64,000 nt of DNA from a virus (IMGVR_UViG_3300023174_000037); one strand, 5' to 3'. Shown: positions 30,740 through 48,839, counted from the stretch's first letter. Notes: generated from the sequence alone by a model not told the origin. Numbers and translations: made by a program.

Positions 30740-31956
30740 AAATTCCACACGATAAATTTTGCGTATTACCTTGGATCAGTTTAGAAGCCAGCCCAATCGG
30801 CACTGTGCGCCCGTGCTGTTTGGCCGATGATGAACTGGTGGACAATGCTGGCAACAAGTTTAACCTAGCCACAGCTGACTTTAACGGAATACAAAATAGT
30901 GATAGCATGAAACAACTGCGCCAAGAATTCGTTGATGGCAAACAACCTCAAACTTGTCGTAAATGTTGGAAGGAAGAACGTGCCGGTCGCACTAGCAAAC
31001 GTATGCATACACTGGATCGTTTGAAGCACATGTTGCCAGATCAAGAATGGACCGTTGATGCAAAACCTCTAATGTTCTTGGACTTAAAATTAGGCAACAT
31101 TTGTAATCTCAAATGTCGTATATGCGGATCCTGGAGTTCCAGCACTTTTGCCACAGAAGAACTACAACACCTAATGCGTAACGAAGATCGAAAAGATAAT
31201 CATCATTATCATATGTTACGCCAAGGGGCATGGCCTAGAGAAAATCAACAGTTTTGGAATGAAATAGCAGGTATATCGGATCAGATACAGTATATAGAAT
31301 TTACTGGTGGTGAACCGTTCATGATCCAAGAACACTTTAACCTGTTACAGGGTCTAATCGATCGCGGACTGGCCAGCAATATAGAAATACATTATAATAC
31401 CAATGGTACTCAGTGGCCCGAACCGGCCGAAGAAATCTGGCGACATTTTAAAATTGTAGAAATAGCATTCAGCATTGACGATGTAGGTGAACGGTTTGAG
31501 TATCAACGATCAAATGCTGTATGGACTGAAGTAATTAATAACATTGCAAAATTCCGTGCGTTACGCAGTCGACACAGTAACATACGTTTACAAATCTGTT
31601 GCACTATTAACGTGTTTAATGTTTACTATTTAGAAACTGTGGCCCAATGGATTTTAGAACAAAAGATGGACTTTATCTATTGGAATATGATGCACGATGC
31701 ATATTTCTTTAGCATTAGTTCTTTGCCAGATCGAGCCAAACAAGCCATTGCTGATCGACTATTAGCGGCTCAGGTTCCGGGTCCGGTCAAAGAAGAATTT
31801 GCTCGTGTCGTGGATTTTATGAATCGTGGCGTAAGTCTTGACGGACAACAAATACGCAGAGAAGTGGGCAATTTGGATCGTAGACGTGGACAAGATTTAA
31901 GAATTGTGCAACCAGAATTTGCTGAATTAATAGATTATGCCGGCCCAGATGCATAA
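30736..31956 (+). CDS. Radical SAM protein with N-terminal auxiliary Fe-S domain
   Basis: FCVLPW, PCCL, CRKCW, then CNLKCRIC and TGGEPF. Confidence 0.88.
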   Translation: MKIPHDKFCVLPWISLEASPIGTVRPCCLADDELVDNAGNKFNLATADFNGIQNSDSMKQLRQEFVDGKQPQTCRKCWKEERAGRTSKRMHTLDRLKHMLPDQEWTVDAKPLMFLDLKLGNICNLKCRICGSWSSSTFATEELQHLMRNEDRKDNHHYHMLRQGAWPRENQQFWNEIAGISDQIQYIEFTGGEPFMIQEHFNLLQGLIDRGLASNIEIHYNTNGTQWPEPAEEIWRHFKIVEIAFSIDDVGERFEYQRSNAVWTEVINNIAKFRALRSRHSNIRLQICCTINVFNVYYLETVAQWILEQKMDFIYWNMMHDAYFFSISSLPDRAKQAIADRLLAAQVPGPVKEEFARVVDFMNRGVSLDGQQIRREVGNLDRRRGQDLRIVQPEFAELIDYAGPDA

Positions 31957-33244
31957 ACCTGACACCTTGTGTATGGCACCGTGGACACACACATACCTCA
32001 GTCCACAAACTGAGCGTAGAATGTGTTGTGCTTCAAGAGAGCCTGCACAGAGTTTTGAGCAGTATATAGACACATCATCTGGCACTGGCAGATATAATCC
32101 GGTAACCTTAGACGAACATTGGAACAGTGAACACATGCGGTCTGTGCGTCGGCGCATGATGGCTGGTGAAACGCTTTCGGAATGTGAAGTATGCAACGAC
32201 AAGCTATTAAACACAGATGTTTATCGCAGTTATTTCAATCGATTATTTGCACACAAATATGAACATGCCATGGCAAATACCCAGGCTGATGGATCAACTA
32301 CTGTAAAACCTGTCAGTTGGGATTATCGCTTTAGTAACCTATGTAACTTTAAATGTCGCACCTGCGGAGATATGTTGAGTAGCAGTTGGGAAAGTGAACA
32401 ACGTGCCAACAATATGATCAACTGGTCTAATCCTAAAAACAATTGGATGATACCCGTTGTCAGAGAAGAAATATCTAAATTTCAAGACACACAGATTGAA
32501 GCAGAATTTGCTCAAGCAGTGGCAGAACATCGTGTAGAAGAAATATACTGGGTAGGCGGCGAACCTTTGATGTTTGAACAGCATTGGCGTTACATGAAAC
32601 AAATAGTAGATCAAGGTGACGGACACCGTGTTTACGCTAGATATAATACAAACCTTAGTCGAGTTGATTATCGGGGCGTTAATCTTTATCGCGACATACT
32701 TGCTTGTTTGCGAGACTGGCAAGTTTGTGCAAGTTTAGACGGAACTGGCCCGGTTGGTGAGTATATTCGCACTGGACTTGACTACAAACAATGGTTGGAT
32801 AATTTCCGTCAAGGTGTGTCAATTGCCACTAATCGTAGACAAATGCGTATAGACTTTACACTTACTTTGCCTGGATTATTTGAAGTCGCAGCAATACAGG
32901 CATTGGCCCAAGAGCTTGATGTAGACGTATTGGCCAAAGTGATATTTGGATTTACTCCGGACATCATAATGAGCCCATTGGCCTTGCCCAGAGAGTTGCT
33001 AGACAAAAAGGTTGATCAACTAGTGGCCAACTTAAATACAGGCGCACTCCGAGATATACTGCTACAGTTAAAGAATCGCCCCGTCTTTGCAGAGCAATGG
33101 CCGGATGAATATCGAGCAGGGTTAGTCAAAGGAAAAGAACGTATATTGCGACTAGAACAGGTACGCAATGACACTTATACTCTTAAAGATATTTTGAGTG
33201 CAGATTACGAAATTTTGGAATGGTATGAATCGATTGTTACTTGA
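31937..33244 (+). CDS. Radical SAM protein with N-terminal auxiliary Fe-S domain
   Basis: LCMAPW, MCCA, CEVC, then CNFKCRTC and VGGEPL. Confidence 0.88.
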   Translation: MPAQMHKPDTLCMAPWTHTYLSPQTERRMCCASREPAQSFEQYIDTSSGTGRYNPVTLDEHWNSEHMRSVRRRMMAGETLSECEVCNDKLLNTDVYRSYFNRLFAHKYEHAMANTQADGSTTVKPVSWDYRFSNLCNFKCRTCGDMLSSSWESEQRANNMINWSNPKNNWMIPVVREEISKFQDTQIEAEFAQAVAEHRVEEIYWVGGEPLMFEQHWRYMKQIVDQGDGHRVYARYNTNLSRVDYRGVNLYRDILACLRDWQVCASLDGTGPVGEYIRTGLDYKQWLDNFRQGVSIATNRRQMRIDFTLTLPGLFEVAAIQALAQELDVDVLAKVIFGFTPDIIMSPLALPRELLDKKVDQLVANLNTGALRDILLQLKNRPVFAEQWPDEYRAGLVKGKERILRLEQVRNDTYTLKDILSADYEILEWYESIVT

Positions 33245-34328
33245 TGTTATAGAAATGGATCTTGAAGACTTGACTGTATATATTGATGTATACGACTCAG
33301 GGCTTGGCCGTAAATGGCTAGCGGCATTGAACAATTTAATAGCCAACAATCTGCATCTTGAAAAGAACTATTGTTTCTTTGGATTTGCTGACGGACCTAG
33401 AAATGGTCAATTGATAATAAATGAAATAAATCGCAGTATCCAGGCTATTAATAGTGCCAATATAGGTTATACAATCGATGACAACTTTACCCTGGATAAC
33501 AGTGTTGTACCAGGAGATGAAGTTATCATTGTAGCAGATACCAATACAGCTCGACGTGATGTGATACCCGGCGATGTCAACCGTGAGCACTTTAATAATT
33601 TACACAGATACTTTGAAGATCTGCAAGGGGTAAGCGGACACATGAGTCCATACTATGAAAAAGCAGATCCAACTACCCGATGGCATATCAGGCAACTTAA
33701 CTTGTTATGCCATGAATTTGAGTCGTGGCAGTTGAGTTGGAAAAAGAAATATACTGCACCGGCTTGGCAAAGACCCAGTCAGCTCATGTGTTGGTTACAG
33801 GCACCACGGTTTGTATTAGATGATGGGGATTACGGGCTATTTGGAATAGAAACAATGAATCGCCCATTGGGTGGTGTTTATGTTGGAGTAAACAAAGCCA
33901 TTGGTAAACATCATTGGGAAGTATTTGTGGATGAAGCCAACTATAATCCTGACATGATCATTGACAATTTAACAACCACAACCATGCGTAGTCAACTCGA
34001 AGCTGCTGGAGATTTTGATATAGAGTGGGCAAACAATCCCGGCGCTCATGCTTGGCAAAAGAAACACTTGGCAGACTTTAGAACATGGCTAGAGCGCAAT
34101 GGGTTTGACCCTGAAGATAAAAGTTTAACTATTGGACATCCGCAAGTGGGCCAGGTTAATTTAGTTAAGAGTTTTGGAACAGAAGATTACCAGACTATAT
34201 GGGCACAGTTAAATACTAGGCTTAATGTGACAGCAATTCGCACCAGTGATGCCAGTGTTGAGTATCCGTATAACTGGTCTGACTCGGACTATATGCAACA
34301 ACAAATAAAATCATTACAAGGACGTTAA
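33225..34328 (+). CDS. Hypothetical protein (~367 aa; ATG at 33225, track start GTG 33198)
   Basis: Long ORF in the operon between a radical SAM gene and the carbamoyltransferase; no family recognised. Confidence 0.8.
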   Translation: MNRLLLDVIEMDLEDLTVYIDVYDSGLGRKWLAALNNLIANNLHLEKNYCFFGFADGPRNGQLIINEINRSIQAINSANIGYTIDDNFTLDNSVVPGDEVIIVADTNTARRDVIPGDVNREHFNNLHRYFEDLQGVSGHMSPYYEKADPTTRWHIRQLNLLCHEFESWQLSWKKKYTAPAWQRPSQLMCWLQAPRFVLDDGDYGLFGIETMNRPLGGVYVGVNKAIGKHHWEVFVDEANYNPDMIIDNLTTTTMRSQLEAAGDFDIEWANNPGAHAWQKKHLADFRTWLERNGFDPEDKSLTIGHPQVGQVNLVKSFGTEDYQTIWAQLNTRLNVTAIRTSDASVEYPYNWSDSDYMQQQIKSLQGR

Positions 34329-34329
34329 T

Positions 34330-34431
34330 ATGAATTGGATTAAAAACTTATACAATAGAATTCGACTAGAAATCCGCTATCGTAAGAAGTTAAAAGAATT
34401 ACGTAAACGAGATCCATTTATCTATAAATGA
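34330..34431 (+). CDS. 33-aa basic peptide (not in ORF track)
   Basis: MNWIKNLYNRIRLEIRYRKKLKELRKRDPFIYK*; exactly fills the gap; ATGA overlap with the carbamoyltransferase start. Confidence 0.7.
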   Translation: MNWIKNLYNRIRLEIRYRKKLKELRKRDPFIYK

Positions 34432-35885
34432 AGTTACAACATATATTAGGCATCAGCGTTGGCTATCATGATGCGGCTGCCACTGTTATAAACAACCGTG
34501 GCGATATCTTATTTGCTGGACACGCAGAACGTTACAGCAAACAGAAAAACGATGCTGACTTTTGTCAGGGATTAATAGATGAAATTGCACAATACAAACC
34601 AGACGTAGTTGCATACTATGAACGTCCTTGGGCAAAACAAACACGACAATGGTATGCAGGCCAGGGCATTGAATGGAACAAGTTAACAGTTAAACAGATA
34701 TTAAAACAACAGTTAGGCGGCCAAATTGAACCAGAACGTGTGCGTAGTTTCAATCATCATTTGAGTCACGCGGCTGCAGGTTTTCAAACAAGTCCTTATG
34801 ATCGAGCTACAGTGGTGGTCATTGACGCAATTGGCGAATGGGATACTGTTAGCATATGGGGAGCACATTATGACAACGGACAGGCACAATACCACAGACT
34901 GTGGCGACAACAGTATCCCAGCTCAATTGGACTATTTTATAGTGCAGTTACTGGACGCATTGGTCTACGCCCACTAGACGAAGAATACATAACAATGGGC
35001 ATGGCTGCTTGGGGCAACCCTGAGCACACAGACGCTATGAATGAGTTGTTACGAGAAAATTTGCATGTGGGCATTGACCCAGGGTTTTTATCCCAAGCAA
35101 AAGATGTAGATATTGCCGCAAGTGCTCAGGCTGTTGCGGAACAAGAGATATATAAAGTGATGCAACGAGCCAGAGCGTTTGGTTGGAGCAGAAATCTAGT
35201 GTATATGGGCGGTGTTGCGCTCAATTGTTTAGCAAATAGAAAGTTGGGCGAGTATTTTGAAAAAATTTGGATTATGCCTTGTCCTGGTGACGCTGGCAGC
35301 AGTCTTGGTGCCGCTGCACTCACATACGGTAAACGAATTAACTGGAATAACGCATACCTTGGTACTAACATCAGCGGTGAATACCCTGTTGATGCCATCA
35401 TCGATTGCTTACAGCGTGATCGAATCGTTGGTGTGGCCAGTGGTAGAGCCGAGTTTGGTCCCAGGGCCTTGGGAAACAGAAGTTTGCTCGCAGACCCGAG
35501 AGGATCGGATATAAAAGATCGAGTAAATGAGATCAAACGCAGACAACAGTTCCGTCCGTTTGCTCCAGTGGTATTAGAAGAATATGCAGATCTTTATTTT
35601 GAAATGCCACGTGGCTGGGTAGACAGTAGATATATGCAGATTGTTGGACGTTGTAAGTTTCCTGATGTGTTTCCTGCTGTCATTCATGTTGACGGAACCA
35701 GTCGTATACAGACAGTGCCCAAGGATGGATCTGGAATACGAAAATTACTAGAACGCTGGATGGAGTTGACTGGTTGCCCTGTGCTGTTAAACACCAGTCT
35801 TAATATACGTGGCGAACCCATGGTCAATGATCGTGCAGATGCAGATCGCTTTGAACAGTTGTATCGTGTTCGAGTTTGTAGTTAA
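34428..35885 (+). CDS. O-carbamoyltransferase (NodU/CmcH/TobZ family)
   Basis: 'GYHDAAA', 'HHLSHAA', 'DAIGE', 'GGVALN', 'EFGPRALGNRSLLADP', 'FRPFAP', 'LLNTSLNIRGEP'. Confidence 0.92.
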   Translation: MKLQHILGISVGYHDAAATVINNRGDILFAGHAERYSKQKNDADFCQGLIDEIAQYKPDVVAYYERPWAKQTRQWYAGQGIEWNKLTVKQILKQQLGGQIEPERVRSFNHHLSHAAAGFQTSPYDRATVVVIDAIGEWDTVSIWGAHYDNGQAQYHRLWRQQYPSSIGLFYSAVTGRIGLRPLDEEYITMGMAAWGNPEHTDAMNELLRENLHVGIDPGFLSQAKDVDIAASAQAVAEQEIYKVMQRARAFGWSRNLVYMGGVALNCLANRKLGEYFEKIWIMPCPGDAGSSLGAAALTYGKRINWNNAYLGTNISGEYPVDAIIDCLQRDRIVGVASGRAEFGPRALGNRSLLADPRGSDIKDRVNEIKRRQQFRPFAPVVLEEYADLYFEMPRGWVDSRYMQIVGRCKFPDVFPAVIHVDGTSRIQTVPKDGSGIRKLLERWMELTGCPVLLNTSLNIRGEPMVNDRADADRFEQLYRVRVCS

Positions 35886-37126
35886 ACAAACCAAGCCGCC
35901 CATTCTGGAACCACTTCACAAAGTGGTTTTTTGCTGGCTGTATCTTCTATTTTAATATGTTTAATAAAACGATCTAATGCGGCAGGGTTAAACTCAACGT
36001 GTTCTACTGTGCTAATTAATCTATCTATAGTTTGCACGTATCCGTATTCATAGTTTGTATACTTAGGATCAAGATAATGTTCGTAACGTTTGCGTCCTTC
36101 ACGCAGACGACTCAATGCCAACGCTTTTAATTCTGTAGGCATAGCTGCAACGCCTAAATGCTGTTGGAATACATGACTTATGCTGGCAAACTTTAAATCG
36201 TTAGCGTGACACCAATCAACAAAGTCCATGGCACTTAGTATATTAATAGCAGTGACCACATGATTGACTATTTCGTGAACTGGGCTTGCGTGTATCTTTC
36301 GAACATTTTCTTCAATGGTTGCCCATTGTGCTCCACGACGTTGATACTCTATTACATCACCTACACCGTCGATGCTCACAGTATACAATACTCGCTTAAA
36401 CTGTTTGAATTTCTCAACCAACCTGTCAGGAAAGTGGCTGGCATTGGTTAAGATAGTTATAATTATATCTTTGGCTAACCCTTGTTCAATCACATAGTCA
36501 ATCAAACGATTGACCTCGGGCTGTAAGATAGTTTCTCCACCGGTAAATCCCAAGATCTTTACATCTTTAATTACAGTTAAGAAGTCAGCGTCAACTGGAT
36601 TAATTTCGTATTTGGATTTAATGCCTTGTTTGATGTCAAATGCATAGCGTTGGCTACTAGCGCCCGAATAACACATTACGCAGGCATAGTTACAGTAGTT
36701 GCTGGGCATGTAGTCTATGGCATATACTTTATCAGCAGTTAACCCTGCATCAATAACACGTTCAACTTCGGCTAGAATATCTACATCTAAATGCTCAAAC
36801 AAATATTCGTTATTGAGTTGCCTAGGACTACTTGCTCCTGCACGTTCGGCATTGATACAAGTGCCGCATACATCTGTTAATTTCTTGTCAAGAAATGATT
36901 GTCGCAAATCTTTCCAAACTTGAGTATTTCTTGATTCAGTTATGTTGTTATTTTGTATATCCCATTGGGGTCCAGCCTGAATAACACTGCAAGGTCTCAC
37001 ATGGTTAACAACTGATTGGTCTGGTGCAACTACTCCGCAAGTAGAGTAAAAGCTATTGACAAATGGTGCCAAACACATTCGTTCGCCGTAGGCATCATAT
37101 AGCTGTTTTACATCTGCTTTGCTCAT
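35882..37126 (-). CDS. Radical SAM protein with N-terminal auxiliary Fe-S domain
   Basis: MCLAPF, PCS, CGTC, then CNYACVMC and TGGET. Likely start ATG 37126 (ATGA overlap with the amidinotransferase stop). Confidence 0.85.
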   Translation of the reverse strand: MSKADVKQLYDAYGERMCLAPFVNSFYSTCGVVAPDQSVVNHVRPCSVIQAGPQWDIQNNNITESRNTQVWKDLRQSFLDKKLTDVCGTCINAERAGASSPRQLNNEYLFEHLDVDILAEVERVIDAGLTADKVYAIDYMPSNYCNYACVMCYSGASSQRYAFDIKQGIKSKYEINPVDADFLTVIKDVKILGFTGGETILQPEVNRLIDYVIEQGLAKDIIITILTNASHFPDRLVEKFKQFKRVLYTVSIDGVGDVIEYQRRGAQWATIEENVRKIHASPVHEIVNHVVTAINILSAMDFVDWCHANDLKFASISHVFQQHLGVAAMPTELKALALSRLREGRKRYEHYLDPKYTNYEYGYVQTIDRLISTVEHVEFNPAALDRFIKHIKIEDTASKKPLCEVVPEWAAWFV

Positions 37127-38142
37127 AGATAAGTTTCTAGGCCACCCCGGCGACGTAGATCTTGTGTGCAACAACTAATGCCACCGTCCCAGAAATAGCT
37201 ATGACGCAGTTCGCTTATAATAGGATTAATTCTGTGCTTTTTACAAAAATCAAATACGTTTTTATTGTATGCTGAAAAGATAACATTTTCTTCATCTAGC
37301 ACTAAACAGTTGACATCAAACACTGTTTCGGCCACAAAGCCGGTCCATTTGTTGAGATACTTGTCCACAAAAGCAGTAAACTCTGGCGTAGGCGTTTGTC
37401 CTTGCACATACCACGCACCCGGATTACTTTCATACTTGAATTTGCCCACTTCCATTGCGGCCCAGATTGAGCTATCCCAAACCTTGCATACTTCCCATCC
37501 TGGAAAGTCCTTGGATAGGTGTAAATGCATGTCGTGTTTGCTGCTTAATATAACTCCGGGCTTGAGGATAGCAAATACAGCATCGCCATGCCCGTCGGTA
37601 ATGGCTTCGTGTATACGATACTCTGGACCTAATACATTATCCACAATCCAACGAGTTTGTTTGGGCTTTAAGTAATCACTGTTGTCAAAGAATACATCAC
37701 GTCCTACTCGCACAATGCAACTGGCACTGGCCCCGTTTAATATGCAATCTGGATCCCAGGCACTCTTGTGCGGATTAACAACTTGGTCGCTAAATGTTGC
37801 ACATATATCATCCAATTCTTGTATAGGCAACACACGTAGCAATTTATCTCCAAGGCTAATTTGCCAATCTCTTGGAGTAAGCGGTGGCAATGGCGCTCCA
37901 TCATTGAGTATTTGGCTAGTTTGAAAATTATCTTTGCTGTCGATGCCGGGACGTAATACCTTCGCACCATAAGTTTCAATTGTGCGCTGAAGGTTGGTTA
38001 AATCTTCTTCGGTTTCTGCCAGTATCTGTTGTAATTGATTACGGACCTGAGCATCTTCAATAAAATCAAAATAGTCTGGTGGATAAGCTCGCCCTACTAT
38101 AACTTCTTCCAAGGGTTGCCAACTGGTATAACTGCTAATCAT
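37123..38142 (-). CDS. Amidinotransferase (GATM/StrB1-like)
   Basis: 'SYTSWQPLEEVIVGR', 'PRD', 'GHGDAVF', 'DVNCLVL', 'DGGISCCTQDLRR' with catalytic His and Cys. Confidence 0.85.
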   Translation of the reverse strand: MISSYTSWQPLEEVIVGRAYPPDYFDFIEDAQVRNQLQQILAETEEDLTNLQRTIETYGAKVLRPGIDSKDNFQTSQILNDGAPLPPLTPRDWQISLGDKLLRVLPIQELDDICATFSDQVVNPHKSAWDPDCILNGASASCIVRVGRDVFFDNSDYLKPKQTRWIVDNVLGPEYRIHEAITDGHGDAVFAILKPGVILSSKHDMHLHLSKDFPGWEVCKVWDSSIWAAMEVGKFKYESNPGAWYVQGQTPTPEFTAFVDKYLNKWTGFVAETVFDVNCLVLDEENVIFSAYNKNVFDFCKKHRINPIISELRHSYFWDGGISCCTQDLRRRGGLETYL

Positions 38143-39283
38143 TACGATCCTTTATAGTGGTAAATTCATTTAACATTGTGTTTAATTCCGTCCATAGTAT
38201 ATTAGCAAATTCACCTCGATAAAAATGATGATAATTGTGCTCAACTATGGGCAAACAGGCTTGGTGTATTTGTTGTCTTTCGTTTACAGATAAATTATTT
38301 AAGTCTTTTAATAACTGAGCAACTTTTTCAATGCGAACAATGTCGTTGGTTTCCAGGTCATAGCTTTCATCGAATATGCCCGCAAATGTTTTAAATCCGT
38401 ATTCGCGCAAGTATGCTAAACTACCGGCGGGTGCAACCAATACAAATGGCATTTCTAATGCTATGGCTTTAAAAGTCTTTTCGGTTATATGAATCCTACG
38501 TCCAAAGTAAACAGTTTCGGTTGGCACATATACTAGGCTGTCGGCTGCTTCGACAAAGTTGCCCAATTGATAACTGTGCATTTCTTGTTGATCTTCTCCA
38601 GCAAATAGTCTAGGAAGGTCTGCTCGGGTCAATACATCGGTTATGTCCTGGTATACATGAGCATATTTTTGTGCTATAATAGATATATCTACACGTTCGT
38701 ATTGGCACACCCTGGGTGCGCTGATATGATTTTGCTCTAGGCCTTGCTTAAAGATGTTGTATAAAAATAACACACGATGATCACGTTTACCTGCCACAAT
38801 GCGGTTTGGACTCATAAAAGTTCGAGTGGGTCGGCGATCTCTCGCTCTAGGAATTAAAAATGTTCGATCGTATCCGCGAAACCAATCTAAACAGGCCCAA
38901 CCATGATAAAAATAATAGTGTGGAGTCCATTCGTAACGACGGCAAAGATTCTCAACAAATTCGCCGCGCTCGCTTACAACAACATGACCAATTTGCTTGG
39001 GCTTTGCTGGCCGCGGTGTTGGAGGCGTTGTGTCTGGCCAAAATAAATCAGTATTTCTTCGATCTACTTCGTCGAACAACGGTTTAAAAATATCTAAATG
39101 CACAGGCTCTTGATCATGCATAAACACATAATTGTTTTCTATTATGCTATCATTGCCTAAGTTAAATAAAGAGTCTGGGCTGGTATTGCCCGGTGGATCA
39201 CAAAAGAACACTCGAGTTCCGGGCTGTTTATCTTTAAACCAAGGCCAAAATGTATGGTTGTAAATCTCATCTATTCTAATCAT
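38135..39283 (-). CDS. GT-B / GT10-like glycosyltransferase
   Basis: 'VYVPTET...HITEKTFKAI...GFKTF...DESYD'; paralog of 26369..27562. Confidence 0.55.
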   Translation of the reverse strand: MIRIDEIYNHTFWPWFKDKQPGTRVFFCDPPGNTSPDSLFNLGNDSIIENNYVFMHDQEPVHLDIFKPLFDEVDRRNTDLFWPDTTPPTPRPAKPKQIGHVVVSERGEFVENLCRRYEWTPHYYFYHGWACLDWFRGYDRTFLIPRARDRRPTRTFMSPNRIVAGKRDHRVLFLYNIFKQGLEQNHISAPRVCQYERVDISIIAQKYAHVYQDITDVLTRADLPRLFAGEDQQEMHSYQLGNFVEAADSLVYVPTETVYFGRRIHITEKTFKAIALEMPFVLVAPAGSLAYLREYGFKTFAGIFDESYDLETNDIVRIEKVAQLLKDLNNLSVNERQQIHQACLPIVEHNYHHFYRGEFANILWTELNTMLNEFTTIKDRND

Positions 39284-41087
39284 GTTTGACGTATTTTATT
39301 CTGGAATTAAACCTAATCTATTTGCTCATGAGCAACAGGCAGATAGTATTGATCATGCTAGGGAGTTAAGCGGTACTAGATACTTCTGGTGGATAAACTA
39401 TTTAACTGACTACACAAAGTTTGATTTTTTATATGAACCTGTGCCCTGGGAAAGTCATCAACGTCATGCCTGGCCTAGTCAGTGGCAAAAGGATGCAGAG
39501 ACTTATCTAGTTCCTAAGCAAGGCTATTCAGAAACCAACTACAAGACTGGCCCTATCTTAATACGGCAACAGGATCGAACCAATTGGACTATTCCTGAAA
39601 CATTTGACCCAGATTCTTTTGATTTCTCCTGGCACCCAGATGCTACAGAACCAGGATACATATATCAATTTGGCACACAACATCAACGCACAGGCGGTCC
39701 ACAATATCGTGTAGCAGGCGCAACAGATTTAAAGTTTTGCGATCAAGTGCGTGGTAGCGTCAAGTCAGGTGCTACACCTATAGTTGAAATTAACCATATG
39801 GATGGTAACGCCGGGCAAGTAGCCGGAACAGTTGCTACTGTTAGATACTTTGACAACTATAAAGATATCTTAACTAGAATTGCTAATACCAGTGAACATG
39901 AGTATTTGTGGATCATTAGTAGCTGTTGTGACTACAGCAAGTTTGACTTCAGTTGGCATCCAGAGCTATGGCAAAATACTATGTTACATGTATTTGCATC
40001 AAGTGGAGAAAAGTTCGGTGATACATTCTATATGCATGTGCCTAGTTTTAAGAAACGCATAGGGCAATTTGAACTATTAGATTGGTATGATGTAAACTTT
40101 GTGGGTCCCGGAGTTCCACGTAGGCCCGTGCCTGTTATACAACACACGTATGATACACATGTAGAAGCAATTAAAACAATTGATTGGTCTGGTCCGCTAG
40201 CTGTGTTTAGCACAGATGATCAAGTAGGAGAAATACCCACTGTTCCGCTGTGGAGAGAAAAAACCAAGACCATTGTTCCATTAAGTGCTGGCGCCAGCAA
40301 GGTCATTGTGCCTAAAACCGCAGTTCCTTATATCAAACGTCAGGCATATGACTATCCCTACATAGATCGCACACAGCGTCATATGTATACAGATGAACCA
40401 TTGGACATTGTGTTTATTGACAACGGTGAACCCAATGCCGAACGCAATTACCAACACATGGGAGAAGTGGTCAGTCTGACTTGGCGTAATCGCATACATC
40501 GCAGCAGTAGAGTTAATGGGCGTGTAGCGGCCTATCAAGCTGCCGCTAAATTAAGTCAGACACCTTGGTTCTTTGCTGTATTTGCTAAGTTGCGTGTAAA
40601 CAAAGAATTTAATTGGTCGTGGCAACCAGACCGCTTACAAGAACCCAAACACTATATCTTTCACGCACTCAATCCCATTAACGGATTAACATACGGTCAC
40701 CAGGCCATGATTGCTTACAACAAGGAATTGGTCCTAAACAACCCAGGTATTGGATTAGACTTTACCTTAGATAGTGAACATGAAGTAGTTCCTATCTTAA
40801 GTGGAACAGCTGAATATGTCGATAGTGCCTGGTCAGCTTGGCGCACAGCATTCCGCGAAGTATTAAAGTTGAAAGGCAATACCGACGTTGAAAGCGAATA
40901 TAGACTTAATCGTTGGTGCGTTAATGGCGAAGGAGCCAACGCCCAATGGAGCAGTTTAGGCGCACAAGATGCTGTGGAATACTATGATGCAGTTGGTGGG
41001 GATTTTACCGAACTCAAGAAGAGCTATGACTGGGCTTGGTTGGCTAGCTATGCTTTGCTGAAGCGCAATCTAACACAGCATCAATAA
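39282..41087 (+). CDS. Multidomain glycosyltransferase-like protein (601 aa) with FDFSWHP-type repeats
   Basis: FDFLYEP, FDFSWHP (x2), FNWSWQP repeats; C-terminal domain shares 'AWRTAFREVLK' with 22126..23058. Lone + strand gene in a - strand block. Confidence 0.65.
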   Translation: MFDVFYSGIKPNLFAHEQQADSIDHARELSGTRYFWWINYLTDYTKFDFLYEPVPWESHQRHAWPSQWQKDAETYLVPKQGYSETNYKTGPILIRQQDRTNWTIPETFDPDSFDFSWHPDATEPGYIYQFGTQHQRTGGPQYRVAGATDLKFCDQVRGSVKSGATPIVEINHMDGNAGQVAGTVATVRYFDNYKDILTRIANTSEHEYLWIISSCCDYSKFDFSWHPELWQNTMLHVFASSGEKFGDTFYMHVPSFKKRIGQFELLDWYDVNFVGPGVPRRPVPVIQHTYDTHVEAIKTIDWSGPLAVFSTDDQVGEIPTVPLWREKTKTIVPLSAGASKVIVPKTAVPYIKRQAYDYPYIDRTQRHMYTDEPLDIVFIDNGEPNAERNYQHMGEVVSLTWRNRIHRSSRVNGRVAAYQAAAKLSQTPWFFAVFAKLRVNKEFNWSWQPDRLQEPKHYIFHALNPINGLTYGHQAMIAYNKELVLNNPGIGLDFTLDSEHEVVPILSGTAEYVDSAWSAWRTAFREVLKLKGNTDVESEYRLNRWCVNGEGANAQWSSLGAQDAVEYYDAVGGDFTELKKSYDWAWLASYALLKRNLTQHQ

Positions 41088-42129
41088 CGTATTCAACTTC
41101 TAAGTCACTAAGCTCTGGATAGATAGGCAAACTTAATACTCTACGAGCCATAGCACTGGCAACACTTAAAATATCTGGTCCTGTATAATCCGCATAAGCA
41201 GGCAACTCGTGCAATGGTTCTTTGTAATGAATTTTGGTTTCAATACCTTTGATGGCCAAGTTGTGAGCAAGCGTATCTCTGCTGTCTACATCAATCACAA
41301 ACTTGTGAAAACAATGCGTTTCAAAGTTGCCAGCATCAATTAAACATCTGATGCCCGATTTGTGTAAACGTTCCATCCAGTATCGTGCAATGGTTTTTCG
41401 GCGCAATTGCCAGGCATCTATGTAGCGTGTTTTGACCAACATTTGCGCTGACTCTGTTTCGCTCATTCTACTGTTAGTGCCTATACTGGTATGCTTGGGT
41501 TTACCGTTGTTGGTCCACTCACGTGCAAACTCCAGCAGGTCTATGTCATCAGTTACAACAGCACCGCCATTGCCATAGGCATTCAAGTTCTTCATTGGAT
41601 CAAAACTCAATGCAGTAGCATTGCCAACGCGAGTGTAATTATTGCTTAACCAGTGTTGAGCACCATCTTCGATTATCAAGTCTGTGGCCCAAAAGCGATC
41701 AGCATTGACTGCCGCACCATACAAGCCAACCAACACAGTGGCCTGCACACTTAGGTCATGTGGTATTTTTTCTTTATCTAGCAAGCCGTGATAGTCAGTA
41801 TCGCCAATATACACTTTCCAACCAGCACGTATAAATGCATTGGCGGTGGCCACGTAGGTCATTGCAGGAACAACTACAGTGGGTGGAACCACACTGGTTT
41901 GTAGTCTATAAAACTCAGCAATTATTTCTAGTGCCTGACTACCTGAATGGCAAGTTACAGCATATTTGCTGTGATTCTTTTGGGCTAACCAGTTTTCAAA
42001 TTCAGCAGTATAGTTACCTGCCATGAGTTGGCCACTACGTAACACCTCGTCGGTCACGTCCAGGATTTCTGTGCGAAGCGTGTTATACTGTTTTTTGAGA
42101 CCAGTAAACGGAATCTTTAAGCCATTCAT
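41044..42129 (-). CDS. DegT/DnrJ/EryC1/StrS PLP-dependent sugar aminotransferase
   Basis: 'IEDGAQ', 'SFDPMKNLNAYGNGGAV' (PLP Lys), 'VLSLPIYPEL'. Confidence 0.92.
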   Translation of the reverse strand: MNGLKIPFTGLKKQYNTLRTEILDVTDEVLRSGQLMAGNYTAEFENWLAQKNHSKYAVTCHSGSQALEIIAEFYRLQTSVVPPTVVVPAMTYVATANAFIRAGWKVYIGDTDYHGLLDKEKIPHDLSVQATVLVGLYGAAVNADRFWATDLIIEDGAQHWLSNNYTRVGNATALSFDPMKNLNAYGNGGAVVTDDIDLLEFAREWTNNGKPKHTSIGTNSRMSETESAQMLVKTRYIDAWQLRRKTIARYWMERLHKSGIRCLIDAGNFETHCFHKFVIDVDSRDTLAHNLAIKGIETKIHYKEPLHELPAYADYTGPDILSVASAMARRVLSLPIYPELSDLEVEYVIDAVLDCASAKHS

Positions 42130-43051
42130 AATATATTTGAAATCCTTCGTCTATATCAACTTTAGGATCAAACCCTAAGTCTTGTCGTGCTGCGTTGATG
42201 TTTAATGCTCCGCGACTAGGAAAGTCTACATCTTTGTCACGAATCTCTATGGTACCTTTACCTACAATTTGAACGGCTAATCGAGCAGCCTCGAGCAAGG
42301 TTTTTGAATGACTTTTTGTAATGTTATATGTCTTGTTAATATGTTTGCTTAGTGTAGCCGCAACAATACCATCTGCGGCATCATCAACATAGGTAAAGTC
42401 CAAAGTTTCATTTGCGCCGTTTACTTTGATAGCGCCGCCGCGCATGGCAGTAAGAATAAATTTGCTAATAACACGGTCTTCAACATCCAGCGGACCATAC
42501 ACAGCACTGGGTCGAATAATCATGTAACTCATTCCGGTCCTACGGGCATAGTCTTTGACCAACCATTCTCCGGCCAGTTTCATAATACCATACTGTCCTT
42601 GTGGGCAACATACAGCATCTTCGGTGACATCATTGTCGAAGTCACCGTAAACCATTGAACTACTGATATAGACAAATTTTCTTACACTATGTTTTTTAGC
42701 GGCTTCGAGTAGGTTAAGTAGTCCTTCACTCATGGTTTGACTACCGCGCTGTGGATTTACATTGACTACTTTTTGTCTAGGAAAGCTGGCCAGATGTAAC
42801 ACAGTGTCTGGTTTATAGGTTTGCATTAACCAATCAATACCATCTTGATCTGCAATGTCAACTGCATGAATTCGAGTTGTTGCAATCTTTTTACGTCGTT
42901 CCTCTAACAAATAATCCAATTCCTCTTGTGGAACCATTCCGTAGTTGGTCTTTATATCTGTTATAAAGACTTCGTGTCCTAGCGATTCAAGACGCTGAAC
43001 AATGTTGTGTCCAATGAGACCTAGGCCTCCAGTTACTAAGATTTTTGCCAT
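42083..43051 (-). CDS. NAD-dependent NDP-sugar epimerase/dehydratase (extended SDR)
   Basis: 'ILVTGGLGLIG', 'SSSMVYG', 'YGIMK' YxxxK, 'DFTYVDDAA'. Confidence 0.92.
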   Translation of the reverse strand: MAKILVTGGLGLIGHNIVQRLESLGHEVFITDIKTNYGMVPQEELDYLLEERRKKIATTRIHAVDIADQDGIDWLMQTYKPDTVLHLASFPRQKVVNVNPQRGSQTMSEGLLNLLEAAKKHSVRKFVYISSSMVYGDFDNDVTEDAVCCPQGQYGIMKLAGEWLVKDYARRTGMSYMIIRPSAVYGPLDVEDRVISKFILTAMRGGAIKVNGANETLDFTYVDDAADGIVAATLSKHINKTYNITKSHSKTLLEAARLAVQIVGKGTIEIRDKDVDFPSRGALNINAARQDLGFDPKVDIDEGFQIYYEWLKDSVYWSQKTV

Positions 43052-43386
43052 TTTAATGCCCAATACGTTTGATCTTGCTCTCGAAGTCGAGCAATGATAT
43101 AATACTTGTATCCGTAAGTAGATGGATCCGTATGTCTATGCCAAAATGGTGTTTCGACCGCGTGTTCCATTACCCATTTGCCCATTTCACTTTCCTGCCA
43201 CTCGTATATAGGTTGTGCTGCATACAAGTCCGGATCTTCTACATCTCCCATAGTAAACGAGTAAACTATTACGTCAGAAAGTTTAACAACCTTATCACCG
43301 ATCAGTCGATACTCATCGGATTTAAATAGCTGATCGGCTTCAGCTGACCGATGTCTAGGATGCATTTGATTTATAGCATCAAACAT
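43036..43386 (-). CDS. Hypothetical protein; probable member of the small C-terminal 'xLK(W/F)' family
   Basis: Likely start ATG 43386; ends 'ARLREQDQTYWALKWQKS'. Confidence 0.65.
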   Translation of the reverse strand: MFDAINQMHPRHRSAEADQLFKSDEYRLIGDKVVKLSDVIVYSFTMGDVEDPDLYAAQPIYEWQESEMGKWVMEHAVETPFWHRHTDPSTYGYKYYIIARLREQDQTYWALKWQKS

Positions 43387-43387
43387 A

Positions 43388-43864
43388 TTACTGTTGTCGA
43401 AGAGCTTTGAATGTTTCTGCTTCAACTACACGTTTGCGTAAACTGCTACTACTAAACGAGTGATCGCGTCCGTTAAAGATAAGTTCAATATTACGCATAT
43501 AACATTCTTCACGCCCGGTGAACTCTTTGTCTTGGTATTCAACACCCAGCACTCGTATGTCCAACGGAAGTATCAACAACAAGTCAACTAGGTCTTGCTC
43601 TGTTTGATAAACAACCACTTCGTCAACATAACGACAAGCGGCCAATTGTATTTGCCGTTCTACAATACTTTGAACTGGATGATTTTTAGTATCAGGACGA
43701 TCAATTGTTGGATCTGTTTGTAAGCCAGCAATCAAGTAATCGCAATGATTCTTTGCTTCGGCCAACATGGCAATATGCCCAGCGTGTAGCATATCAAAGG
43801 TAGAAAATGTGATGCCAATCTTCTTACCATCTTCTTTGAGTTTTCTAATGTGGTTGAATATCAT
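43388..43864 (-). CDS. Cytidylyltransferase-like protein (TagD / HxGH family)
   Basis: 'FSTFDMLHAGH', 'QSIVERQIQL', 'HSFSSSSLR'. Confidence 0.85.
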   Translation of the reverse strand: MIFNHIRKLKEDGKKIGITFSTFDMLHAGHIAMLAEAKNHCDYLIAGLQTDPTIDRPDTKNHPVQSIVERQIQLAACRYVDEVVVYQTEQDLVDLLLILPLDIRVLGVEYQDKEFTGREECYMRNIELIFNGRDHSFSSSSLRKRVVEAETFKALRQQ

Positions 43865-43870
43865 ACTACT

Positions 43871-43899
43871 ATTATAACAGGTTTATTGCGCTTTTGCAA
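43871..43899 (-). promoter_or_regulatory. Sigma70-type promoter (TTGCAA-17-TATAAT), predicted leaderless start at 43864
   Basis: -10 at 43876-43871, -35 at 43899-43894; the A of ATG is the 7th base after the -10. Confidence 0.65.
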
Positions 43900-44551
43900 C
43901 GAATTCTTTGACCATTGGGAAGATACTTTCTAATGCATCAGCACAGGCTTGGGCTACTTGTCTATGTTCTTTTTGGGTTTCGGGACCACTACGCAATTCA
44001 ATATAGTGTAACCAGCTGCGTAAGGTGCCTTGCATATACAAGCGACTGGTAGTGATACCCTCTGGCAGAATAGCACGAGCTTGTTCTTTGGCAATGCCCA
44101 GCTCAATGGCCTTGTTATAAATCATACTGATATGAGTGCTAACAAACCCTTGTTGCGCTTGCCACCACTTGTCTAACTCTGGATCATCTGTGGCCAAACT
44201 GTTCTGGCGATTCTTTGTATCTTGTAGTCGAGTTTCTTTGAACTCAAATCCAAGATCAGCCACAGCATAACGCTGACTAAACTCTTGGAAGCTGAAGCTA
44301 CGATGACGCAGGATCTGTCTAGCAATGTCACGTGTGGTTTCAATTTCTAAACAAGCTGACACCATTTCAAGTGGGCTCCAGTGTTGATGCTTGATAAGGT
44401 AACGAATCAACTTTTCACTGGTGTCTGTGTTGGTTTGGTTAGCTGGATTGCTAACCCTAGCGCAGTAAGCAACCAATTCTTGAGCATTCACAATGCCCTG
44501 GCTTGCTAATTCTGCGCTAGGTTGGCTCGACGAAACTAAGGTTACTTTCAT
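43883..44551 (-). CDS. thyX: Flavin-dependent thymidylate synthase
   Basis: ThyX motif 'RHRSFSFQEFSQRY'; 'HWSPLE'; 'KEQARAILP'. Confidence 0.95.
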   Translation of the reverse strand: MKVTLVSSSQPSAELASQGIVNAQELVAYCARVSNPANQTNTDTSEKLIRYLIKHQHWSPLEMVSACLEIETTRDIARQILRHRSFSFQEFSQRYAVADLGFEFKETRLQDTKNRQNSLATDDPELDKWWQAQQGFVSTHISMIYNKAIELGIAKEQARAILPEGITTSRLYMQGTLRSWLHYIELRSGPETQKEHRQVAQACADALESIFPMVKEFVAKAQ

Positions 44552-45678
44552 AATTGATAATCTTTACATTGTGCGGTCAATAACTCTTCAAGAGTTTTAC
44601 TGTAAAATAAATCCAAATTGGCCTGTCTACGTGCTGTTGTGTCATGAAAAATTTGGGCAAGATCTAATGACATAAGTTGATCTATTACTTGATGAATCAT
44701 ATCTATTCTTTTATTTAAGTTTGTTTCGTTATCATATAAATGATTGTGCATTATGTCATCAAACACATCAAACCCAATTAGTCTAAGAAAATTAACTGCT
44801 CCAGGATTTGATAACCACAGGCCCAGTTGTCCTGCCATGATAGGTTTCCAGGTTTTCTCGGTGACTGTAATTGTATTGTTTAATGTAGACGTTTCTGTTG
44901 CATAATTGACATAGCTGTTGGTGTAAGCTGGATGCGTAATTGCATGAGCATTAGGTTGATCATTCATTTGAGATGGTAATGTGGTTCTTAACAATTCAAA
45001 CTTTCTTATAATATCATCATTCCACCACTCTTTTGGTGTTGACTGGTTCTCTATTGTTTTGTTCCATTGATTGTGCATAGTAAACAACAACTGATCAAAA
45101 TATGATTTTTCTTTTAATTTAACAAAATTTTCAACACGATGATATCTAGCCTGACTATTCAATGAAGAAATTTTATATTGACAGTGATGGTCTGTAGCAG
45201 TAGTAGAAGTTTTATAAAGATATTTTTGCATTAGATACCAAAAAGGAAAAAAACAAATATGATCTTTTGGATTTAAAAAATAAGTAACATCTCCGGACAG
45301 CACAACAAAATTATTGGTTAATTTCAATAGTTCGCTGACTACAGTTTCTTCGTAGCAATTAAATGGATCTGCCGACATGTTAACAATTAACATGCCGTCT
45401 TTAAGACGTTGATTAACAATATCTGTTTCAAGGCGCCATCTACCTTGTTTTCCTGCTGGCGCCAATCTAACAAGCGAGTTAATATGCACAGATTTTAGCA
45501 GTAATTGATTCCATGGCTGGGTTAAATCAGAATATTTTCTTGAATCAAAAATATATTTACCCAGACATGGATCTTCTTTATCTGCTAATTTAGCATCCTC
45601 ATAGATATATTGTTGTTTAGAGTTTTCCAAGCAGTTTATCAGTTTCGGGTTGAACCAGGTTAGCCACGGCTGTAACAT
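44548..45678 (-). CDS. GT-B / GT10-like glycosyltransferase (AT-rich; start may be TTG 45630)
   Basis: 'NYATETS...VTEKTWKPI...GFDVFDD'; third paralog. Confidence 0.55.
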   Translation of the reverse strand: MLQPWLTWFNPKLINCLENSKQQYIYEDAKLADKEDPCLGKYIFDSRKYSDLTQPWNQLLLKSVHINSLVRLAPAGKQGRWRLETDIVNQRLKDGMLIVNMSADPFNCYEETVVSELLKLTNNFVVLSGDVTYFLNPKDHICFFPFWYLMQKYLYKTSTTATDHHCQYKISSLNSQARYHRVENFVKLKEKSYFDQLLFTMHNQWNKTIENQSTPKEWWNDDIIRKFELLRTTLPSQMNDQPNAHAITHPAYTNSYVNYATETSTLNNTITVTEKTWKPIMAGQLGLWLSNPGAVNFLRLIGFDVFDDIMHNHLYDNETNLNKRIDMIHQVIDQLMSLDLAQIFHDTTARRQANLDLFYSKTLEELLTAQCKDYQL

Positions 45679-45919
45679 CTACTACAAAGTCAACATCTCG
45701 AATTTGATAATCGTTCTCATTGAAGTAGCGGGTGAGCATGGTTTCAACTTCTTCTAGGTCAAGACCTTGTTTAAGTAGGGTATGAACGTTGATGGTTTTC
45801 TGCTTGCCGCCGGCCAACTTGATTACAACTTTTTTAATGCACTCTAACGGTACATCAGTTTTGTTTACGTCGGCAAGAATCAGTTCCCATTGGCTTATAA
45901 AGTCATCATTGTGTTGCAT
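45617..45919 (-). CDS. Hypothetical protein (100 aa)
   Basis: Packed into the - strand operon; overlaps both neighbours. Confidence 0.7.
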   Translation of the reverse strand: MQHNDDFISQWELILADVNKTDVPLECIKKVVIKLAGGKQKTINVHTLLKQGLDLEEVETMLTRYFNENDYQIRDVDFVVDVTAVANLVQPETDKLLGKL

Positions 45920-46652
45920 CTGCCGTCACAGTCTTTGGTTTGTTAGGACCACGGGTGCGGCGCTTTGGTGCTTCAAAAGACTCAGTTTCCGGTGCAACTG
46001 CTCTGGCTGTAACAGTAGGATCCATACGTTCGGCATCCTTTTTCATACGGGCAGCTTCTGCAACCATAGCACGGGCATTGATTTCCATAGCCTTGGCCTG
46101 TGCCAGCATGTTGGCCGCAATGTCTCGATCGCTTAGTGCGCCATCTTGTCCGGCTTTGAGTGTAGGAGGTGCAACATACGCAGTGTTGGCCTTGGCAGAT
46201 TGACCTGCCTTGTATTCTGCTTCAGCTTTGCGTTTGACTTCCGGAGCAACCATGCCACGGCTGGCATCGTTCTCGGCCATCTTCTTGATAGCTTGCTCGC
46301 CTTGTTTCATTTCGTTCAACATTTTGTTTAGTTCATCTAAACGAATTTTGGCATCACCGGTTGGAGTTACAATAACATCACTGGTACGTAGTTTTTTAAT
46401 CATACGCTCTTGGTGTAAGGTTTCTAACACTGGACGGCCATCTGGAAGGTAAGCACGATGCAATGCATCTGCTAGCTCTTCGCTTTGTTGAGCAACATCG
46501 CTTTCCAACGCCTTCTGGATTGAATCTTGCCAGTGTGCGTGTAAGGTATCTGGATAGATAACCAGGCACATGTGATCTTCACCGGGTACCTGACGGAACA
46601 GGATGCAGATCTTGCGATCTCCGTGCTTGCCTACGTGTTTCATAAATGCCAT
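45906..46652 (-). CDS. Hypothetical protein (248 aa) with coiled-coil/low-complexity C-terminus
   Basis: Long ORF with a GGAG SD upstream. Confidence 0.8.
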   Translation of the reverse strand: MAFMKHVGKHGDRKICILFRQVPGEDHMCLVIYPDTLHAHWQDSIQKALESDVAQQSEELADALHRAYLPDGRPVLETLHQERMIKKLRTSDVIVTPTGDAKIRLDELNKMLNEMKQGEQAIKKMAENDASRGMVAPEVKRKAEAEYKAGQSAKANTAYVAPPTLKAGQDGALSDRDIAANMLAQAKAMEINARAMVAEAARMKKDAERMDPTVTARAVAPETESFEAPKRRTRGPNKPKTVTADATQ

Positions 46653-47548: not shown

Positions 47549-47701
47549 TTAATTGTAATCCTTAGGTAAACAAATATGATTTTTCTTTGTGCCTTGTGCA
47601 TTAATGCACTGTTGTTTGGTACGGTGTTCACTGACCACTTCCACGTTGGGATTAGGTAGCGGACCCGGTACAAGAATTAAAACCAACACCCAATCGTACA
47701 T
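47549..47701 (-). CDS. 50-aa protein with N-terminal hydrophobic segment (not in ORF track)
   Basis: MYDWVLVLILVPGPLPNPNVEVVSEHRTKQQCINAQGTKKNHICLPKDYN*; TGATG coupling to the gmhD-like gene. Confidence 0.55.
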   Translation of the reverse strand: MYDWVLVLILVPGPLPNPNVEVVSEHRTKQQCINAQGTKKNHICLPKDYN

Positions 47702-48486: not shown

Positions 48487-48839
48487 TTTTGACTATCGCC
48501 CTTCATAACTCGATAGTTATCTTCTATTGAGTCGGGTGTGCTTACTTCTATAACTGTGCCAGCTTCAACGCATTCCAATTGATGTGGTTTGCAAGGTTCG
48601 TTGTGCCATACCGCACCATCACGCAATTCTTTTTCGTGTAGTTCGGCAGTCCTGGTATCAATCCATCGCACAATAAATTTACCACTTTGAATATACCAAG
48701 TTTCTTCTTTGTTTCGATGAAAGTGCATACTGAATTTGGCACCGGTTTCAAAGTTCATGAACTTGCCGCAGTATTTGTCGTTGGTAGCCCAGATGTATTC
48801 AGAACCCCAACCTTTAGGAACTAACCCTTTAAGTTGCAT
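48483..48839 (-). CDS. Cupin-domain protein (sugar isomerase-like)
   Basis: 'KGWGSE', 'SMHFHRNKEETW', 'PHQL', 'IEVSTPD'. Confidence 0.75.
   Translation of the reverse strand: MQLKGLVPKGWGSEYIWATNDKYCGKFMNFETGAKFSMHFHRNKEETWYIQSGKFIVRWIDTRTAELHEKELRDGAVWHNEPCKPHQLECVEAGTVIEVSTPDSIEDNYRVMKGDSQK

Follow-up and report, generated by a model that had tools for sequence, protein, structure and literature searches.

A conserved island of sugar-type tailoring genes with an AGAT/StrB1-type amidinotransferase in a jumbo freshwater phage

The 64,000-nucleotide stretch of viral contig IMGVR_UViG_3300023174_000037 that was analysed (the window) comes from an uncultured, T4-related jumbo phage of freshwater (lake) origin and carries an amidinotransferase gene among genes for sugar-type enzymes, radical S-adenosylmethionine (SAM) proteins and glycosyltransferase-like (GT-like) proteins. 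The amidinotransferase (P0001) is, to judge by its sequence, a genuine enzyme of the AGAT/StrB1 type (pentein/GME superfamily), and its linkage to sugar-type and GT-fold genes takes the form of translationally coupled operons in a conserved arrangement. An initial annotation of positions 34428-43051 had proposed a guanidino- and carbamoyl-sugar pathway. The real amidinotransferase and the conserved sugar-type tailoring island have held up; the short-chain dehydrogenase/reductase (SDR) as a dehydratase has not, and the DegT link and the order of steps are not general. The tentative interpretation is that a tailored nucleotide-sugar is attached to the fibres of the virion.

Compared as a single sequence (phmmer), P0001 matches the solved human AGAT (1jdw), Streptomyces StrB1 (1bwd), Erwinia HsvA (5wpi) and cyanobacterial SxtG (6u1r) with E-values from 3e-15 to 9e-9. 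A profile of 40 homologs gave E-values from 5e-33 (HsvA) to 1e-30 (StrB1) and matched no solved structures other than amidinotransferases. The four solved enzymes score about equally with the family profile (110-118 bits, HsvA on top), and the phage clade is thus a separate branch and not a copy of any one of them. The homology is whole-length and includes two motifs common to the solved enzymes, an N-terminal SYxxWxPLEEVIVG and a C-terminal GGxxC. Asp92, Asp149, His185, Asp187 and Cys324 align to Asp170, Asp254, His303, Asp305 and Cys407 of AGAT, so that the catalytic Cys-His-Asp triad and the two guanidino-binding Asp residues are all kept. Across 40 diverse homologs H185, D187 and C324 do not vary, and D92 is conserved in at least 90%. 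These matches and the five intact catalytic residues bear out the amidinotransferase call of the initial annotation. No match to P0001 was found in Pfam, in NCBIfam or among the named PHROG families, and the Pfam model PF02274 gave none even at E up to 10; because the homology in the PDB is clear, this reflects the reach of the model and not a missing feature. The long insertions of AGAT and HsvA are absent from P0001, which is also shorter than StrB1 in the same module, a compact form that would fit an open site for a bulky acceptor.

The family comprises 707 representatives at 50% clustering. Ten representatives were looked up; all come from metagenomes, and a single one has the label 'glycine amidinotransferase'. 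Three distant representatives lie on short contigs with unannotated neighbours. Relatives are encoded by more than 595 viral contigs, and Campylobacter phages were reported in 2010 to have an amidinotransferase (PMC2853527); the view that such enzymes are not typical of phages was therefore overstated. Each of the five related jumbo genomes has two or three genes of the family at separate loci. Among the extra copies (for example G001:C1:325975-326889 and G005:C1:43779-44837), one has a GT-B-like gene close by, and a twitch radical SAM gene is situated about 7 kb from another.

All gene types listed in the initial annotation (carbamoyltransferase, radical SAM, amidinotransferase, two GT-like genes, DegT and SDR) are present at 34428-43063. 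This block is part of an island of about 28 kb, at about 22-50 kb of the window. Paralogs and further sugar genes reach across that whole span, so that the borders first drawn were too narrow. The genes of the block and those next to it are:

28146-29483, 29483-30739, 30736-31956 and 31937-33244 (+), four tandem twitch radical SAM paralogs (NF033640 286-394 bits; CxxxCxxC at residues 123-138)
33198-34328 (+), orf33198, a conserved protein of 376 amino acids, in 70 of 81 loci
34428-35885 (+), carbamoyltransferase of the NodU/CmcH/TobZ family (Pfam Carbam_trans_N and Carbam_trans_C above cut-off; PHROG 1601)
35882-37174 (-), N-terminal-twitch radical SAM, accessory (Pfam Radical_SAM; NF033640 221 bits, cut-off 170)
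37123-38142 (-), amidinotransferase P0001 of the AGAT/StrB1 family, 339 amino acids (matches to AGAT, StrB1, HsvA and SxtG; catalytic residues)
38135-39283 (-), GT-B-fold glycosyltransferase-like P0002, orf382 (AlphaFold model, Foldseek, VIA)
39282-41087 (+), multi-domain GT-A-like P0003, orf601 (AlphaFold model, Foldseek, VIA)
41044-42129 (-), pyridoxal phosphate (PLP) dependent sugar aminotransferase of the DegT/DnrJ/EryC1 family (Pfam 183 bits)
42083-43063 (-), extended SDR of nucleotide-sugar epimerase/oxidoreductase type (Pfam Epimerase 159 bits)
43036-43425 (-), orf129, a conserved small protein of 129 amino acids, in 56 of 81 loci (no family match in Pfam, PHROG or NCBIfam)
43388-43864 (-), RfaE-domain-II-like sugar-phosphate nucleotidyltransferase, accessory, in 9 loci (Pfam CTP_transf_like; TIGR02199 78 bits, below cut-off)
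43883-44551 (-), ThyX flavin-dependent thymidylate synthase (Pfam Thy1 147 bits), probably a co-transcribed passenger and not a pathway gene

Overlapping or abutting genes couple orf382 to the amidinotransferase and the latter to the radical SAM gene, the stop of orf382 overlapping the start of the amidinotransferase gene by 8 nucleotides. A second run leads in the same way from orf376 through ThyX, the nucleotidyltransferase, orf129 and the SDR to DegT. The start of P0003 shares a CATG with the divergent orf382. Scans for sigma-70 promoters and terminators were at chance level (52 found, 47 expected) and the T4 late motif TATAAATA occurred once against 4.8 expected, and no timing of expression is therefore assigned.

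The amidinotransferase occurs at 79-89% identity in 136 viral contigs, of which 80 loci were kept (81 with the window) and searched with 21 window proteins by tblastn. Synteny of the island extends over more than 60 viral contigs, among them complete genomes that measure 337-364 kb and have direct terminal repeats. Almost all loci of sufficient length share one gene order: three radical SAM genes, orf33198, carbamoyltransferase, amidinotransferase, GT-B-like, GT-A-like, DegT, SDR, orf129 and ThyX. Because the same order recurs in most of the 80 loci, the grouping of the genes is not due to chance. The last three of the tandem radical SAM genes belong to this core (71-72 of 81 loci). The radical SAM gene at 35882 and the nucleotidyltransferase gene at 43388 are accessory; the former is found at 42% identity or more in only 7 loci, and elsewhere the matches are at the paralog level of 22-28%. 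In the 34 loci where the full set of 11 core genes is present, conservation is highest for the amidinotransferase, with a median identity of 81% and a minimum of 80%, while its neighbours have medians of 52-75% (radical SAMs 66-75%, carbamoyltransferase 68%, SDR 67%, ThyX 65%, DegT 62%, GT-A-like 60%, orf33198 59% and GT-B-like 52%).

The carbamoyltransferase has both the Kae1-like N-terminal and the C-terminal domain (PF02543 126.6 bits, cut-off 24; PF16861 164.5 bits, cut-off 27) and matches PHROG 1601, 'Nol-like carbamoyltransferase', at E 2e-91. It reaches 141 bits with the NodU equivalog, for which the cut-off is 1000, and is thus a member of the family and not a NodU ortholog. The island contains eight radical SAM genes, seven of which are N-terminal-twitch paralogs and one of the B12 type. 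The seven score 204-394 bits with the NCBIfam model NF033640 (cut-off 170), and all six that were checked have CxxxCxxC at residues 123-161. To our knowledge no reaction has been assigned to the N-terminal-twitch family. Always flanked by the radical SAM array on one side and the carbamoyltransferase on the other, orf33198 has no match in Pfam (also when 37 members were included), PHROG, NCBIfam, the PDB profile search or the Atlas; its residues H136, E140, C171, H172, E173 and E175 are invariant.

DegT matches PF01041 over its full length with 183 bits and reaches no equivalog cut-off. The lysine of its SFDPMKNL motif aligns with that of the equivalent motif in 7b0d (the PLP-binding lysine motif). 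The best matches in the PDB are this scyllo-inositol transaminase and the C-3 aminotransferases QdtB, DesV and WbpE, with the C-4 enzymes much further away. In the SDR the motifs GxxGxxG and YGIMK are present. RmlB-type 4,6-dehydratases have, besides YxxxK, an Asp-Glu acid/base pair in an S/T-D-E-V-Y-G motif; the SDR reads SSSMVYG at this position, and the assignment as an RmlB-type 4,6-dehydratase was rejected. Lacking the pair, it is of the epimerase or oxidoreductase type and may oxidise or epimerise a sugar. The score with TIGR01181 is 135 bits against a cut-off of 365, and UDP-glucose 4-epimerase 4zrm is the best PDB match.

The source of the activated sugar is suggested by a heptose-nucleotide-type set further along the island, the members of which score 192, 121 and 130 bits, all under the equivalog cut-offs:

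47701-49942 (-), the whole set
47701-48486 (-), HldD-like epimerase
48483-48839 (-), cupin
48829-49599 (-), RfaE-domain-I-like (PfkB-type) kinase
49544-49942 (-), RfaE-domain-II-like nucleotidyltransferase

A nucleotide-heptose of the phage's own making is suggested by this split HldE/HldD-like set, and the activated sugar may then be a heptose.

P0002 and P0003 have no sequence-family match and their assignment as GT-like is by predicted fold. The AlphaFold models, based on alignments of phage homologs, are confident, with pLDDT 88 (P0002) and 86 (P0003). The model of P0002 has the two-Rossmann-domain fold of the GT-B enzymes, and Foldseek matched it with a probability of about 1 to GlgM, SdgB and OtsA, and also to BshA. 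OGT, POGLUT1, SdgB and GtfC are among the matches obtained with Foldseek and VIA. The VIA alignments span 240-285 residues and include GT-B enzymes only, with Z 11.0-11.7 to T4 beta-glucosyltransferase (BGT), 10.6 to FucT and 8.5-10 to about 45 others; T4 alpha-glucosyltransferase is at 9.5-9.8. Residues 370-515 of P0003 have a predicted GT-A fold (VIA Z 10-12.4) that matches B4GALNT1, WrtF, hyaluronan synthase, A64R and SpsA, together with sugar nucleotidyltransferases of the same fold. Whole-chain comparison by Foldseek puts LH3, Mimivirus R699 and chondroitin polymerase (K4CP) on top, and ArnC is also matched. In its model P0003 thus resembles protein-glycosylating GT-A enzymes (LH3, Mimivirus R699, PBCV-1 A64R and SunS/ThuS). 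Its N-terminal part consists of modules of about 55-60 amino acids with the motif FDFSWHPD...YIYQFGTQ, which match no family and vary greatly in copy number among close relatives (proteins of 533-1784 amino acids in L002-L081). In the ESM Atlas the two families seem to be confined to viruses, with virus-only clusters for P0002, and the homolog search with orf601 returned unnamed close relatives only.

The first match of P0002 raises the question of DNA as a target: a modified base would receive a sugar from the GT-B-like paralogs, and this sugar would be decorated by the tailoring enzymes. The rank of BGT as best structural match of P0002, with alpha-glucosyltransferase lower down, the presence of ThyX in the operon and the soluble appearance of all the enzymes speak for such a hypermodification. 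The gap in Z to ordinary GT-B enzymes is, however, only about 1 and counts as a tie, and the island lies in the structural block and not among replication and modification genes. Five complete or near-complete relative genomes were searched with profiles for entry enzymes, with positive controls in each search, and no ThyA-type hydroxymethylase was found in them. Modification of DNA is accordingly regarded as quite unlikely.

The same five genomes bear on a cyclitol product. The enzyme set parallels aminoglycoside tailoring, where a StrB1-like amidinotransferase, a TobZ-like carbamoyltransferase, a twitch radical SAM such as BtrN and DegT enzymes such as StsC and BtrS are found, and the best solved match of DegT is the scyllo-inositol transaminase. 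An aminocyclitol or aminoglycoside-like small molecule, by analogy with streptidine or bluensidine, would also agree with the way the corresponding module of the Synechococcus phage S-SCSM2R has been read ('antibiotic synthesis genes', PMC12801897). Against it, neither a sugar-phosphate cyclase of the DHQ-synthase type (PF01761) nor an inositol-phosphate synthase (PF07994) was found in the five relatives, nor among those window open reading frames (ORFs), a part of the whole, that were scanned against Pfam; the analogy with streptidine drawn in the initial annotation thus lacks its entry enzymes. The island shows no genes for export or self-resistance, and it lies among fibre genes with several GT-like proteins of the type that acts on macromolecules. 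A product of this kind is very improbable. Equally hard to credit is the more specific idea of a free, cationic, aminoglycoside-like pseudo-saccharide, guanidinylated, carbamoylated and tailored by radical SAM enzymes, which would be made in the infected cell, as also by CP220 and S-SCSM2R, for use against competitors (other phages or neighbouring bacteria) or against host translation.

The modified sugar could instead be added to the lipopolysaccharide (LPS) or capsule of the host during infection and block superinfection. The glycosyltransferases and rfaE genes in the host recognition clusters of T4-like marine phages have been read along these lines (PMC7029224), and HldE/HldD-like heptose genes belong to the chemistry of the LPS core. 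Contrary to this, a crude hydropathy scan found no transmembrane segment in any island protein, and no priming phosphoglycosyltransferase (Bac_transf or WecA/MraY type) or Wzx flippase was found in the five relatives, although host enzymes could supply both. Conversion of the host surface is thus rather unlikely. The routes through a cyclitol, a ThyA-type hydroxymethyl-pyrimidine and a phage-encoded lipid carrier are all weakened by the entry enzymes missing from the five relatives; they can still be envisaged with the missing parts supplied by the host.

The soluble appearance of the island proteins and the lack of carrier machinery in the relatives point to an acceptor in the cytoplasm. Taken with the position in the fibre block and the folds resembling protein glycosyltransferases, this circumstantial evidence fits glycosylation of virion proteins best. 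In the pathway that follows from this, a nucleotide-activated sugar would be made by the phage through the split HldE/HldD-like heptose-nucleotide genes and oxidised to a keto-sugar by the non-dehydratase SDR. DegT would aminate the keto-sugar and the amidinotransferase would turn the new amine into a guanidino group, the amidino group coming from L-arginine by way of a thio-uronium intermediate on Cys324. O-carbamoylation of a hydroxyl by the TobZ/NodU-type enzyme and further changes by the twitch radical SAM paralogs (for example oxidation, epimerisation or C-C chemistry) would complete the sugar. The phage-specific GT-B-like and GT-A-like transferases would then attach the product in the cytoplasm, most probably to the phage's own fibre or baseplate proteins. 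If this is true, hundreds of aquatic phages and the Campylobacter biocontrol phages make a guanidino, carbamoyl and radical-SAM-tailored sugar that is new to glycans and is probably displayed on the structures that meet the host, with a bearing on host recognition, phage stability and the chemistry of twitch radical SAM enzymes. As the most constrained gene of the block, and one that is easily expressed, the amidinotransferase offers direct experimental access to a pathway left unexplained in published phage genomes since 2010.

The partners of more distant amidinotransferases were counted within about 10 kb in 79 viral loci, where the enzyme is 26-45% identical to the query representative. 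A twitch radical SAM is nearby in 17 loci, a GT-B-like gene also in 17, a GT-A-like gene in 8 and DegT in 2; no carbamoyltransferase was found near any of the 79. Any radical SAM or GT-like gene is present in 31 loci and none of the window's families in 40. The recurring partners are thus twitch radical SAMs and GT-like proteins. Two architectures recur, one with GT-A, radical SAM, amidinotransferase and two radical SAMs, the other with five radical SAMs, amidinotransferase and GT-A. Amidinotransferases less than 35% identical to P0001 are again found beside twitch radical SAM arrays and genes of the orf601 family in L130/L146/L153/L155, in L151/L154/L156/L162, in CP220 and in S-SCSM2R, and among 146 neighbouring ORFs of 11 such loci Radical_SAM is by far the commonest Pfam family, with 25 members. 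Co-occurrence with DegT, which the initial annotation had named beforehand as a test, was found in this lineage and in S-SCSM2R and is rare in the distant loci. Co-occurrence with GT genes likewise holds in this lineage and extends to part of the distant loci only, and the carbamoyltransferase is not a general partner. Tandem pairs of amidinotransferase genes were seen in three distant loci of T4-like aquatic phages (L106, L107 and L123).

Several points weigh against a tailored sugar on the virion fibres. All steps of the proposed pathway, with the donor, the acceptor, the sugar, the target and the order of reactions, are inferred from genes, and the same applies to the guanidino-sugar as product of the amidinotransferase. 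We know of no guanidino sugar in natural glycans, and a text search of the literature for one found none. Enzymes of the radical SAM/SPASM type act more often on peptides than on sugars. The GT assignments are by fold only, with middling Z values, and no DxD motif for the binding of metal and diphosphate was identified in P0003, where the likely position, judged by eye, reads as an invariant F-A-K (V433, F434, A435 and K436 are invariant). Virion, host surface and DNA are not told apart as targets by direct evidence. The synteny of the close relatives is largely inherited and does not count as independent evidence, DegT and the carbamoyltransferase are lineage-specific partners, and the 40 of 79 loci without sugar, radical SAM or GT families show that the amidinotransferase family as a whole is not tied to sugars.

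The last point leads to a further alternative, in which the amidinotransferase acts on a small amine (glycine, lysine/ornithine or a polyamine) in arginine or polyamine metabolism or in the packaging of DNA and the sugar genes are merely linked. In the loci without the partners above, the commonest neighbours are a protein of 172 amino acids (38 loci), ATE_C/FemAB-like transferases of aminoacyl-transferase type (23) and DUF6614 (20). HsvA, the top profile match, is a polyamine amidinotransferase, and the amidinotransferase is far more conserved than its neighbours. A homolog in S-SCSM2R, ORF266, has been found in the virion proteome (PMC12801897). This explanation does not account for the translational coupling to the GT-B-like gene or for the linkage that recurs, in lineages less than 35% identical, with GT-like genes and radical SAM arrays, and we consider it unlikely.

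The type of module, an amidinotransferase with radical SAMs, has been in the phage literature since 2010. In the Campylobacter phages CP220 and CPt10 a module of radical SAM genes and a putative glycine amidinotransferase was described with its function unassigned (Timms et al. 2010, PMC2853527). That of CP220 has four radical SAMs, the amidinotransferase, another radical SAM and two nucleotide-diphospho-sugar-transferase-like (GT-A-like) genes, and it comes just after baseplate genes (gp5-like lysozyme and PAAR). It differs in that the amidinotransferase is only about 23% identical to P0001, in the host and the phage lineage, and in that no carbamoyltransferase, DegT or SDR is annotated within about 12 kb on each side. 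ORF301-310 of S-SCSM2R, the genes named for antibiotic synthesis (PMC12801897, 2025), form a single co-oriented block that encodes glycosyltransferases, a protein of the DegT/AHBA-synthase family, an 'inosamine amidinotransferase' and a radical SAM. Here 2-oxoglutarate oxygenases replace the large radical SAM array and a carbamoyltransferase is lacking. ORF309 was missed by tblastn with P0001; the second amidinotransferase, ORF266, is 29% identical and lies beside KdsA/KdsB.

The host recognition cluster of pelagimyophages and cyanomyophages, which is fibre-linked and hypervariable (Zaragoza-Solas et al. 2020, PMC7029224), resembles the present island: in T4-like aquatic phages it forms a large insert in the structural block, and it contains radical SAM cassettes and rfaE-type genes beside glycosyltransferases and fibre genes. 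Amidinotransferases are not mentioned in that paper (0 occurrences), and the core of the island described here is strongly conserved and not hypervariable. Giant viruses (Mimivirus R699 and L230-type; chlorovirus A64R) have soluble, virus-encoded GT-A enzymes, glycosylate virion proteins in the cytoplasm and make their own amino-sugar nucleotides. The likeness of P0003 to these enzymes is by fold only (7-16% identity), and the hosts there are eukaryotes. We know of no amidinotransferase or radical SAM array in giant viruses.

The island adjoins baseplate and fibre genes. The window opens with a baseplate wedge gene, directly 3' of which a single ORF of 4932 amino acids (1594-16392, +) may encode a giant fibre or VrlC-type protein and mark the start of the host-recognition block. 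The remaining features of the island are:

22126-23058 (+), GT-A-like relative of the orf601 family, 310 amino acids, with which the island provisionally begins on the left (E 3.6e-7 by phmmer against 39282-41087; no Pfam match)
23125-24531 (+), B12-binding radical SAM (Pfam Radical_SAM 47 bits; B12-binding match sub-threshold)
24979-26394 (+), N-terminal-twitch radical SAM paralog (NF033640 300 bits, cut-off 170; CxxxCxxC at residue 146)
26369-27562 (+), GT-B-like paralog of orf382 (phmmer against 38135-39283 E 2e-13)
27559-28149 (+), ORF of 196 amino acids between radical SAM paralogs, missing from all 80 related loci (weak, sub-threshold match to Stf0 sulfotransferase, E 0.001)
44548-45678 (-), third GT-B-like paralog (phmmer E 1e-10 against 26369-27562 and 5e-8 against 38135-39283)
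45906-46652 (-), conserved protein of 248 amino acids with a Lys/Arg-rich tail and a KRGRPxK-like motif, which looks like a DNA-binding or structural protein and not an enzyme

An all-against-all comparison of the window ORFs grouped the seven twitch radical SAMs, the three GT-B-like proteins (26369, 38135 and 44548), two GT-A-like proteins (22126 and 39282), two nucleotidyltransferases and two SDRs as paralog sets. No usable match to the amidinotransferase, orf382, orf601, orf33198, orf129 or orf376 came from Pfam, NCBIfam or PHROG, and no cultured phage had a megablast match to 34-44 kb of the window. A single-protein scan of 185,579 species genomes with the amidinotransferase gave one match, a 148-kb contig (NZ_JBBAKG010000003.1) of a metagenome-assembled genome (MAG) named 'Haliscomenobacter sp.', in which the same syntenic island is found, its amidinotransferase being 80% identical. 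This is probably phage sequence that was binned with a Saprospiraceae MAG, and gives a weak hint of the host.

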